64,000 nucleotides of DNA from Escherichia coli. Its GTDB lineage: Bacteria; Pseudomonadota; Gammaproteobacteria; Enterobacterales; Enterobacteriaceae. How positions within the stretch are numbered: position 1 is the stretch's first letter; every line of letters begins with the position of its first letter. The stretch lies in NCBI RefSeq assembly GCF_011045215.1, contig NZ_CP049201.1; one strand, 5' to 3'. The translations under genes were made by a program, and so were the position numbers. This document shows positions 5,550 through 6,364 of this stretch, one piece after another. Under the pieces are notes generated by a model. It did not search any database. It saw only the letters and a program-made list of their open reading frames with translations, and was not told where the DNA came from.

Positions 5550-6095
5550 ACAAAATACCAGAATAATATATCATTTATCCAACAGGCTGGTTTGTTCCGT
5601 TTCCGGGAAAATTCCAGGGTAATAATGTTTAGCGATGCTTATTTTTGGGGCTATGTGTCGTTCATGAATTGTATTCCTTTTGATTTACAAGGTGTTTTTG
5701 TGATGTTTACACAGTAGTAATATTAACATAAGAGATAATTAGTAAAGGCGCTAGATATTAGCGGGCATATATCAGTATAGTTTAATATTATGTGTATATA
5801 ATATTTTATACTTTCTTGGCAAAAGAGGTCAATGGTGTTTGATTGATAGCTTTTGCTTATCAAAGTTAAGTTATTGAACGCTGGATTTGCTCCTGTATTT
5901 CCAGACATCTGTTATCACTTAACCTGTTACTGGTCTGCCTCGTTGTCGCAGATATTCCATTCCTGTTGTGAGCGATAACCCAGCGTATGATGCGGATGTC
6001 ATTTGTTATAGTGTCCGGGTACCTTCGCAAGGTTCTTTGTAAACGTTAACCTGCCTAGTTTAGGTATGACATATTTTAGATAGATTATCAAAAAT

Positions 6096-6161
6096 GATCA
6101 ATCGATCGCATTTAATAGCTATGGAAAATCAAAGCGGGTGAATTGATCGTTTGTAGCGATC
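6096..6161. promoter_or_regulatory. Cluster of four GATC (Dam) sites in the AT-rich region upstream of the autotransporter
   Basis: GATC at 6096, 6104, 6145, 6158 within 66 bp. Confidence 0.3.
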
Positions 6162-6364
6162 GTTGTCGGTAAACCCGGTTCATGACCCCCCCCAACTGGT
6201 AAAGCTGGAGATAAAGAGAGAAATACAGAAGATTCTTGAAGATGAATCGGTGAAATCTTAATAAAAGATACTGTATTCGCTGAGTTACTATTTAATATTG
6301 TTTAATAAAACAATCCGGCATGAATGAATACACTGTACAGGATGTCATGCCGGGAGTATAAATT

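Follow-up and report, generated by a model that had tools for sequence, protein, structure and literature searches.

Two diverged copies of a gtr-like Dam/OxyR switch sequence upstream of an island-borne autotransporter gene of Escherichia coli

The autotransporter locus and its GATC cluster

What is the origin of the GATC cluster upstream of an autotransporter gene in Escherichia coli? The DNA analysed here, which we call the window, is a stretch of 64,000 nucleotides (contig NZ_CP049201.1) that belongs to E. coli; many complete genomes match its dsbD-cutA-pheU core at 99% identity. An integrative conjugative element (ICE) has inserted at the tRNA-Phe gene pheU (11423-11498); its cargo end occupies positions 1-11400 and encodes a UvrD-type helicase, a TraI relaxase of the PFGI-1/MobH class and a tyrosine integrase. 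Both pheU and pheV are known ICE hotspots, as exemplified by ICEEc2 (PMC11537424). The cargo includes, on the minus strand, an 850-aa AIDA-I-type autotransporter gene (2997-5549), and from its ATG a spacer of 815 bp (5550-6364) extends to the stop codon of a RamA/SoxS/MarA-like regulator gene. A preliminary description of this DNA took the spacer for one long, AT-rich control region with a tight cluster of four GATC sites, and proposed that the autotransporter may be phase-variable through Dam acting with OxyR or with Lrp. The length and the base composition of the region stand (36.1% GC, against 52.0% in the core genome), but the spacer is a patchwork of insertion sequence (IS) and gene debris rather than a single evolved control unit. 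All four GATCs fall in a displaced, diverged copy of a gtr-like switch, and a second copy, contiguous with the autotransporter leader, contains none.

The autotransporter is recognised by the NCBIfam autotransporter barrel, AIDA-I and MisL models, also matches the ECSE_1600 model, and finds the AIDA-I beta-domain (PDB entry 4MEE) at E=1e-96. Its structure matches at E<1e-5 include none to Ag43, a negative that concerns structure matches only and is not a direct comparison of the autotransporter with Ag43. Orthologues of about 90% identity occur in many E. coli, and the order regulator-spacer-autotransporter is found at pheV or pheU in many loci of the collection that was searched; comparison loci are designated below by L-numbers.

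A sequence scan bears out the four GATC positions within 66 bp, at 6096, 6104, 6145 and 6158. They are spaced by 8, 41 and 13 bp, with a largest distance of 62 bp, and no other GATC occurs between 4910 and 9740. The claim that the cluster is denser than chance holds for the spacer, where at least four GATCs in 66 bp were reached in 0.1% of spacer-only shuffles (1.8% of shuffles of 1-6900 and 4.1% of island shuffles). Equal clusters, however, lie within the coding sequences of orn (39940-39980), mutL (46288-46345) and rlmB (57610-57676), the last with six GATCs within 67 bp, and GATC density by itself is therefore weak evidence. Over the island as a whole GATC is strongly depleted (19 in 1-11400 against about 43 expected from dinucleotide shuffles), and over the window it is slightly enriched (269 against 236 expected). 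The sequence around the sites is more telling: the 21-mer at 6142 (ATTGATCGTTTGTAGCGATCG), which carries the GATC pair 6145/6158, agrees at 18 of 21 positions with the P22 gtr OxyR(A)/(C) sites and with agn43 GATC-II/III. Such a match to known Dam-sensitive OxyR half-sites was reached in 0/300 shuffles of the whole window.

Copies of a gtr-like switch at the autotransporter and its orthologues

The four GATCs are contained in a 107-bp segment, which we call segment X (6069-6175, minus strand). It is a distal, diverged copy of a gtr-like switch whose intact counterpart lies upstream of an orthologous autotransporter in locus L065. Aligned without gaps and in register, the minus strand of X agrees with L065 2666-2772 at 67 of 107 positions; the local alignment matches 74 of 98 with a score of 44, compared with 16.3+/-2.2 for shuffles (z=12.6). 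Half-site A (6146-6160, ATCGTTTGTAGCGAT) is flanked and overlapped by GATCs 6145 and 6158, 13 bp apart, and is perfectly kept, scoring 8/10 against the strict OxyR consensus. Half-site B (6115-6129, minus-strand ATTTTCCATAGCTAT) lacks GATC, lies 31 bp from A, aligns with the L065 sequence ATAGTTAAAAGCTAT and is moderately preserved, agreeing with ATAGnTnnnAnCTAT at 7/10 positions. Half-site C (6083-6098, minus-strand ATCATTTTTGATAAT) aligns with L065 ATCGTTTTTGACGAT and is poorly preserved, having decayed to 5/10 of the strict consensus. GATCs 6158, 6145 and 6096 occupy the canonical positions GATC1, GATC2 and GATC3, GATC4 is now AATC (6083-6086), and the GATC at 6104-6107, in the B-C spacer, is an extra site with no counterpart in L065 or P22. 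X consequently has one true 13-bp GATC pair, 6145/6158, where the gtr type has two. The half-site geometry is 31/31, and the composite score of 23/30 is unique in the window, although it is found in 3.7% of shuffles of 1-6900. X is also related to the characterised P22 region itself, in site A (20/24; 3/1000 shuffles) and in sites A/C (18/21; 0/300 window shuffles).

The homology of X to the intact switch ends after 'aaatatgt' at 6069 (L065 2772), just before the stretch (L065 ~2773-2784) aligned with the P22 -10, which has been mapped (transcription start data, PMC2909390). In the window the native -10 position reads CATACC (6063-6068) and is IS2-like DNA. Where the gtr type has a contiguous promoter that starts about 33 bp past GATC4, X retains a consensus match to a substitute alone, TTGATC-17-TAAAAT (6073-6101, minus strand, toward the autotransporter), which scores 9/12 in a consensus scan and has its -35 over GATC 6096. 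Searched against 5,426 complete E. coli genomes, against plasmids, against phages and against viral contigs, X gave no match; it gave two chance matches in GTDB species-representative genomes and one contig like the sister locus L025 in metagenomes. The motif TGATCGNTTGTANCGATC gave 20 matches in viral contigs, about the number estimated for chance, and P22-like contigs and a few intergenic cases alone look regulatory. The idea that X is an orphan scrap was dropped once the L065-type switch had been found upstream of the autotransporter orthologues.

That intact switch precedes the 862/864-aa autotransporter alleles (L065, L066 and L067), where a gtr-like Dam/OxyR architecture occupies the DNA 246-321 bp upstream of the ATG. 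Its GATCs, at -321/-308 and -259/-246 from the ATG (2680/2693 and 2742/2755), form two pairs with 13-bp spacing. The L065-type half-sites are ATCATTACGAGCGAT (GATC-N9-GATC), a perfect ATAGTTAAAAGCTAT, and ATCGTTTTTGACGAT (GATC-N9-GATC); they start 31 bp apart and score 7, 10 and 7 of 10 against the strict OxyR consensus. Each outer half-site holds a GATC pair, the inner one holds none, and the promoter begins from the promoter-proximal pair. The L065 switch agrees with the P22 gtr region at 53 of 69 positions (77%) and with agn43 at 21 of 24, in both cases with 0/1000 shuffles as good. We consider it likely, judging from this homology and layout, that the L065-type module works as the gtr switch does and makes those autotransporter alleles phase-variable. 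Because an intact gtr/agn43-style architecture stands before the orthologues, Dam-dependent phase variation of the OxyR type is a well-founded prediction for the gene family.

The autotransporters of L065-L067 adjoin an invasin-like gene of the same ICE family. In L008-L010 as well as L065-L067 a 1,084-aa invasin/intimin-like gene takes the place of the regulator at the ICE end; in the L065 type the autotransporter with its intact switch is divergent from the invasin gene across a common 631-bp spacer, and a FaeA-type fimbrial operon follows. The invasin gene could use the same switch as the autotransporter in such loci. The FaeA gene of L065 belongs to the neighbouring fimbrial operon and not to the autotransporter.

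Other members of the autotransporter family have lost part of the switch or have none. In L069-L071 (860-aa and 846-aa alleles) a different IS, with an rve-type transposase, lies within half-site C at about 2240-2330, and just 'ttttgacGATC' and the downstream promoter region are left before the autotransporter. The plasmid-borne 839-aa allele, the chromosomal copy of IBS28 and L064 have no switch at all; upstream of the plasmid allele, the IBS28 copy and an allele of 78% identity the DNA is unrelated and has no GATC cluster. A related module was observed upstream of the F17A fimbrial gene (f17A) in L076 (3990-4085; E. coli 2017.15.02CC, and also three pig-faeces isolates), in the order GATCgttacagtcGATC, a perfect ATAGCTTTTAACTAT, and ATCGATCGTTTTTAACG; over 78 bp it shares 77.5% identity with the L065 switch, and an IS1 lies just beyond it. 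The f17A module suggests that the switch cassette is common to several adhesin loci.

In the window it is a second copy of the switch that is joined to the autotransporter. The autotransporter leader (5' untranslated region; 5550-5786, minus strand) is 80% identical to the L065 leader over 5400-5700, and the alignment runs on into the switch. Contiguous with the leader, positions 5787-5881 (minus strand) agree with the L065 switch at 66 of 91 positions (z=6). The A site of this proximal copy is cut at 5882 by the inverted repeat of an IS2-like remnant, GATC2, GATC3 and GATC4 have become GTTC, GACC and AAGA, a B-like site (ATAAGCAAAAGCTAT) remains at 5846-5860, and the C site is unrecognisable. 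Since no GATC occurs from 4910 to 6096, the proximal copy contains none. It does contain the best sigma-70-like match of the spacer, TTGACC (5832-5827)-18-TAAAAT (5808-5803), minus strand, at 10/12. The spacer holds 8 promoter-like sites, counted as consensus matches only, against 5.2+/-2.0 in shuffles; because this is barely an excess, no promoter match in the spacer counts as evidence of function. X, the proximal copy and the L065 switch are about equally diverged from one another, so X is not a recent duplicate. More likely, X is the switch of another allele, imported by IS-associated recombination.

Between the two copies lies the 3' remnant of an IS2-like element of the IS3 family (5882-6068, minus strand), consisting of the right inverted repeat (IRR) and the last ~55 transposase codons, with a stop and a frameshift inside. 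It has about 77% DNA identity to IS2 and matches IS2 InsD in tblastn (E=9e-11) and the NCBIfam IS2 TnpB model (E=1.1e-7). A reading by eye of X as a further part of this transposase pseudogene ('NAID*SF') was rejected, as tblastn, local DNA alignment, Pfam and NCBIfam found nothing past 6068-6073.

Transcription of the autotransporter and rival explanations

How might the autotransporter be expressed from such an arrangement? By analogy with gtr, we propose that in the intact module OxyR would occupy one of two pairs of half-sites, the distal or the proximal, and shield the covered GATCs from Dam, and that methylation of the uncovered GATC pair would make the ON or the OFF state heritable. In the window the module appears dismantled: the IS2-like remnant has parted X from its -10, and ~265 bp downstream a GATC-less copy sits on the autotransporter leader. 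The autotransporter would then be transcribed from the GATC-less proximal promoter and be blind to methylation. X would be a stranded relic, which may still bind OxyR at A+B, so that some cells would have 6145/6158 under-methylated. Homology, architecture, junctions and GATC loss are read directly from the sequence; from them we infer where OxyR binds, how the sites are methylated and which promoter is used. On this basis we think that transcription of the autotransporter of the window probably starts at the proximal promoter, which has no GATC, and that Dam/OxyR phase variation affects it marginally at most, with X left behind as a relic. Of the two mechanisms that the preliminary description named, Dam with OxyR is thus the right class and Dam with Lrp is not, given the homology to a gtr/agn43-style switch that is intact upstream of orthologous autotransporters; the copy that it flagged, however, is displaced, off its -10 and short of one canonical GATC. 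Its picture of the region was wrong, and its conclusion that the autotransporter may be phase-variable, which we predict for the gene family, is probably wrong for this copy, where the switch fused to the gene is without any GATC.

Several observations weigh against the relic interpretation. X keeps the GATC-bearing half-site A, a 7/10 partner B at canonical spacing and a substitute promoter that points toward the autotransporter, and a terminator scan predicted no terminator between X and the autotransporter ATG. Functional half-sites of the Salmonella opvAB switch score down to 7-8/10 (PMC4856963). Three of the four canonical GATCs are kept at ~37% divergence, with a neutral p of about 0.014 (an estimate biased by site discovery), and these kept GATCs suggest that X was under selection until recently. 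Likewise, in 9 of 10 related loci none of the four GATCs is missing; these loci, though, are 97.5-99.8% identical (0.2-2.5% diverged), so that GATC conservation among them is uninformative on selection.

The alternative to which these observations lend most weight is that X is still a working Dam/OxyR switch, with OxyR at A+B or B+C and a leftward promoter formed by TTGATC (6101-6096), 17 nt and TAAAAT (6078-6073). Its transcript would cross the IS remnant and then the defunct proximal copy before entering the autotransporter gene, in addition to or in place of that of the proximal promoter. Half-site A with its 18/21 agreement to known sites, a 7/10 B at the 31-bp spacing shared with L065, a 9/12 promoter-like site whose -35 falls on GATC 6096, the lack of any predicted terminator before the ATG is reached, the survival of three canonical GATCs out of four, and the co-inheritance of X and the autotransporter in many strains all speak for such a switch. 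We nonetheless find it unlikely, if worth taking seriously, because the native -10 and transcription start site are replaced by IS2-like DNA, half-site C is down to 5/10 with GATC4 lost, and the leader would measure ~517 nt and cross the transposase fragment. Moreover, the L065 equivalents of the substitute elements, TCGATC and TTAAAT, are weaker hexamers that the promoter scan did not pick up, the proximal copy has a better promoter-like site, and L025 has lost 10 bp with the -35 and a GATC. A more speculative and rather doubtful extension starts from the occurrence of the module at the ICE-borne autotransporter family and of a related module upstream of f17A: gtr-like modules might be a portable "phase-variation cassette" moved among E. 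coli adhesin genes by recombination and IS traffic, with X either still working, as a switched distal promoter beside a constitutive proximal one, or carrying heritable methylation without an output.

The remaining explanations seem to us much less probable than these. X might gate a rightward transcript to a DUF465 gene in the manner of agn43, from a plus-strand promoter ATGACA (6066-6071), 18 nt and AAAAAT (6090-6095) with the OxyR sites downstream of the start. This promoter-like site scores 9/12, DUF465 is intact or nearly so in sister strains, and in L020-type loci it has a ribosome-binding site ~310 bp to the right, with a hairpin and a T-run before the gene. Yet the L065/P22 homology points the module toward the autotransporter, the -35 of the putative plus promoter lies in IS2-derived DNA, and the target gene in the window is a 21-codon stub. 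DUF465 also exists without these GATCs in L029, L030, L035 and other E. coli, and it is for this reason that a rightward role is improbable; X as the native DUF465 promoter region was rejected on the same ground. That the GATCs are what remains of Dam control of transposition in an IS end or promoter, as in IS10, IS50 and IS3, would suit the abutting IS2-like fragment and the translation 'NAID*SF', which by eye resembles the transposase motif NGxxESF in the same frame. We regard this as highly improbable: X and IS2 DNA align with a score of 19 against a shuffle mean of 19.5, X has no similarity to IS2 protein, the profile matches end with the IS fragment, and X is homologous to the autotransporter switch instead. 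At none of these levels, DNA, protein or profile, do the GATCs lie inside IS terminal or promoter sequence. A chance pile-up, in junk DNA without a regulatory past, of GATC/CGATCG palindromes has in its favour the three equally dense clusters in ordinary genes and the debris that clearly surrounds this one, but it would have to produce in-register homology to L065 at z=12.6, a half-site match never met in 300 shuffles and three GATCs on canonical positions, and is just as hard to believe. Least credible of all is a pap-like Lrp/Dam switch, for which nothing speaks besides GATCs in AT-rich DNA; the spacings of 8, 41 and 13 bp (62 at most) lack the defining 102-103 bp, no PapI/PapB-type gene stands beside the autotransporter in the window, and the sequence context is of the OxyR type.

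A design of two GATC pairs and three half-sites is known from gtr of Salmonella and P22, which controls gtrABC in O-antigen glucosylation. There, as in L065, two 13-bp GATC pairs lie in the outer two of three half-sites, the inner one has no GATC, and the promoter begins at the proximal pair (Broadbent et al. 2010, PMC2909390). In gtr, OxyR on A+B is activating (ON) and on B+C lies over the promoter (OFF); bound OxyR blocks Dam at the covered GATC pair, and the methylated other pair resists rebinding, which yields a heritable state (PMC2909390). The steps are 32/32 bp in gtr and 31/31 in the autotransporter family, whose switch precedes an AIDA-type autotransporter on an E. coli ICE. Unlike gtr, the module of the window is duplicated, one copy being severed from its promoter and without GATC4 and the other GATC-less. 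The agn43 (flu) locus resembles that of the window in that an autotransporter adhesin on a mobile island has a long leader and an OxyR site with GATCs, and its GATC-II/III core GATCGTTTATATCGATC agrees with the window sequence GATCGTTTGTAGCGATC at 18 of 21 positions, with nothing beyond the core in common. It differs in having three GATCs in one OxyR site, with OxyR as a repressor only (PMC2909390), whereas the autotransporter family has, ahead of its promoter, the gtr type with three half-sites and two pairs; the window has no set of three GATCs in a single OxyR repressor site at or just past a transcription start. The autotransporter of the window, in addition, is AIDA-I-like and not demonstrably Ag43.

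Alternative OxyR occupancy at the 32-bp spacing of reduced OxyR, leading to opposite methylation patterns, is a likeness to Salmonella opvAB, whose functional half-sites score 7-10/10, the same range as here (PMC4856963). However, opvAB has four half-sites with single GATCs 46/19/46 nt apart and no 13-bp pairs, an arrangement that the window does not share. Structured variation has been described in the opvAB regulatory region (PMC12902445). In the Ucl (F17-like) fimbriae, too, the promoter of an island-borne E. coli adhesin has an OxyR site ahead of it, and natural variants of this site alter expression (PMC9236248); no Dam role or phase variation is reported for them, and the variants are single-nucleotide polymorphisms rather than IS insertions or duplications. 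They nevertheless parallel the decay series of the autotransporter switch. The pap family shares with the class of switch discussed here the Dam-dependent, heritable ON/OFF control of surface adhesins. Its two GATC boxes lie 102-103 bp apart (PMC2909390), and it also has Lrp sites and a PapI-like cofactor, none of which is present at the window locus. There the neighbours are the RamA-like regulator, the DUF465 stub, IS debris, an EAL protein and porin fragments, and no PapI/PapB-like regulator is adjacent.

In the searchable literature Dam/OxyR phase variation is described for agn43, gtr, opvAB and Mu mom, and our search of it yielded no report of an E. coli autotransporter with a gtr-type switch. 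To our knowledge, Dam/OxyR phase variation of E. coli adhesins is textbook matter for Ag43 only. The intact gtr-like module before an ICE-borne AIDA-type autotransporter, if it functions as proposed, would make this a second E. coli adhesin family under Dam/OxyR. The family can moreover be viewed as a natural series of dismantled switches, comprising an IS in C, an IS in A, a GATC-less copy, a duplicated and stranded copy, and no switch at all, which could be used to ask which elements switching needs and how bacteria lock and unlock surface antigens. It also holds a caution for annotation: a GATC cluster, however striking, that precedes a gene may be a relic, and the copy attached to the promoter is the one that counts.

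The rest of the spacer, its sister loci and its neighbours

To the right of X the spacer continues with a poly-C tract (C8, 6186-6193), which is the junction of a 368-bp deletion and shows homopolymer instability, its length being 6, 7, 8 or 9 across sister strains. It is followed by the 3' stub of a DUF465 gene (6196-6261, plus strand), 21 codons and a stop with 83% identity to annotated DUF465 genes. Some sister loci keep 368 bp extra at the poly-C tract, including the rest of DUF465; the gene is full in L020 and intact at 71 aa in L029/L030 (two short contigs). A 46-codon open reading frame (ORF) from ATGACCCCCCC was rejected because its frame across the poly-C tract is not conserved, the tract varying from 6 to 9. 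Beyond the stub, an inverted repeat read from the sequence (CCGGCATGA...TCATGCCGG) forms a hairpin at 6315-6353, a candidate terminator that the regulator gene and the DUF465 gene, which converge on it, would share; it was not among the predictions of the strict terminator scan. No known RNA family was found at E<=1, and X has no Rfam match.

The sister loci vary in other parts of the mosaic as well. Some lack 59 bp of the IS fragment, and in L025 the 10 missing bp include one GATC and the -35 of the substitute promoter. In L029, L030 and L035 positions 1823-6162 (4,340 bp) are missing, with ...gagctgtttttgtatt joined straight to gttgtcggtaaaccc... and no flanking duplication, and these loci are thereby without the porin fragments, the autotransporter, the IS fragment and both switch copies, except for the last ~13 nt of X. 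We had taken 6163-6193, with the poly-C tract, for the tip of an IS2-like left inverted repeat and 1823-6162 for an insertion, on the basis of the L035-type junction and a GACAAC...AATAAGTGATAGT match (1/500 shuffles). This reading was withdrawn because the homology to the L065 switch crosses 6162|6163, which makes a 4,340-bp deletion the better interpretation of the L035/L029/L030 type. Within the autotransporter leader, a 7-bp indel (GCACAAA) at 5724 is polymorphic among the strains compared (L020, L021 and L027). In several strains the autotransporter is called as 743-751 aa rather than 850-858 aa, and these shorter calls suggest that the autotransporter itself is decaying in part of the population.

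The regulator (112 aa; 6365-6703, minus strand; alternative start 6721) matches the NCBIfam RamA model (E=5e-46) but falls short of its curated cut-off. More than 400 blocks of the collection encode an identical protein, whether or not they have the autotransporter, and the regulator forms part of the ICE end. It is missing from the loci in which the autotransporter has an intact switch (L065 type), and the spacer contains no marbox for a RamA-like regulator at up to 2 mismatches. Since the regulator also has other neighbours, is missing at the intact-switch loci and finds no marbox in the spacer, a dedicated pairing of regulator and autotransporter is unsupported. Silencing by H-NS, in turn, is plausible for AT-rich island DNA of 36% GC. 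In L019, where the regulator has a different neighbour, four GATCs lie in 38 bp (6928-6965), in a stretch that contains AAAGGATCTTCTTGAGATCC and may correspond to the ColE1/pMB1 replication-origin region.

Finally, on the downstream side of the autotransporter an intact EAL-domain gene occupies 781-1569, and two ORF fragments at 1804-2538 match residues 199-329 and 349-420 of the UidC glucuronide porin, the porin gene being truncated and frameshifted. Between them, cagatgccattttgcactatcacttatt at 1766-1800 is similar to CAGACATCTGTTATCACTTAA, the IS2-type terminal repeat at 5903-5923, and may be a second IS2-like end remnant on the other flank of the autotransporter block.

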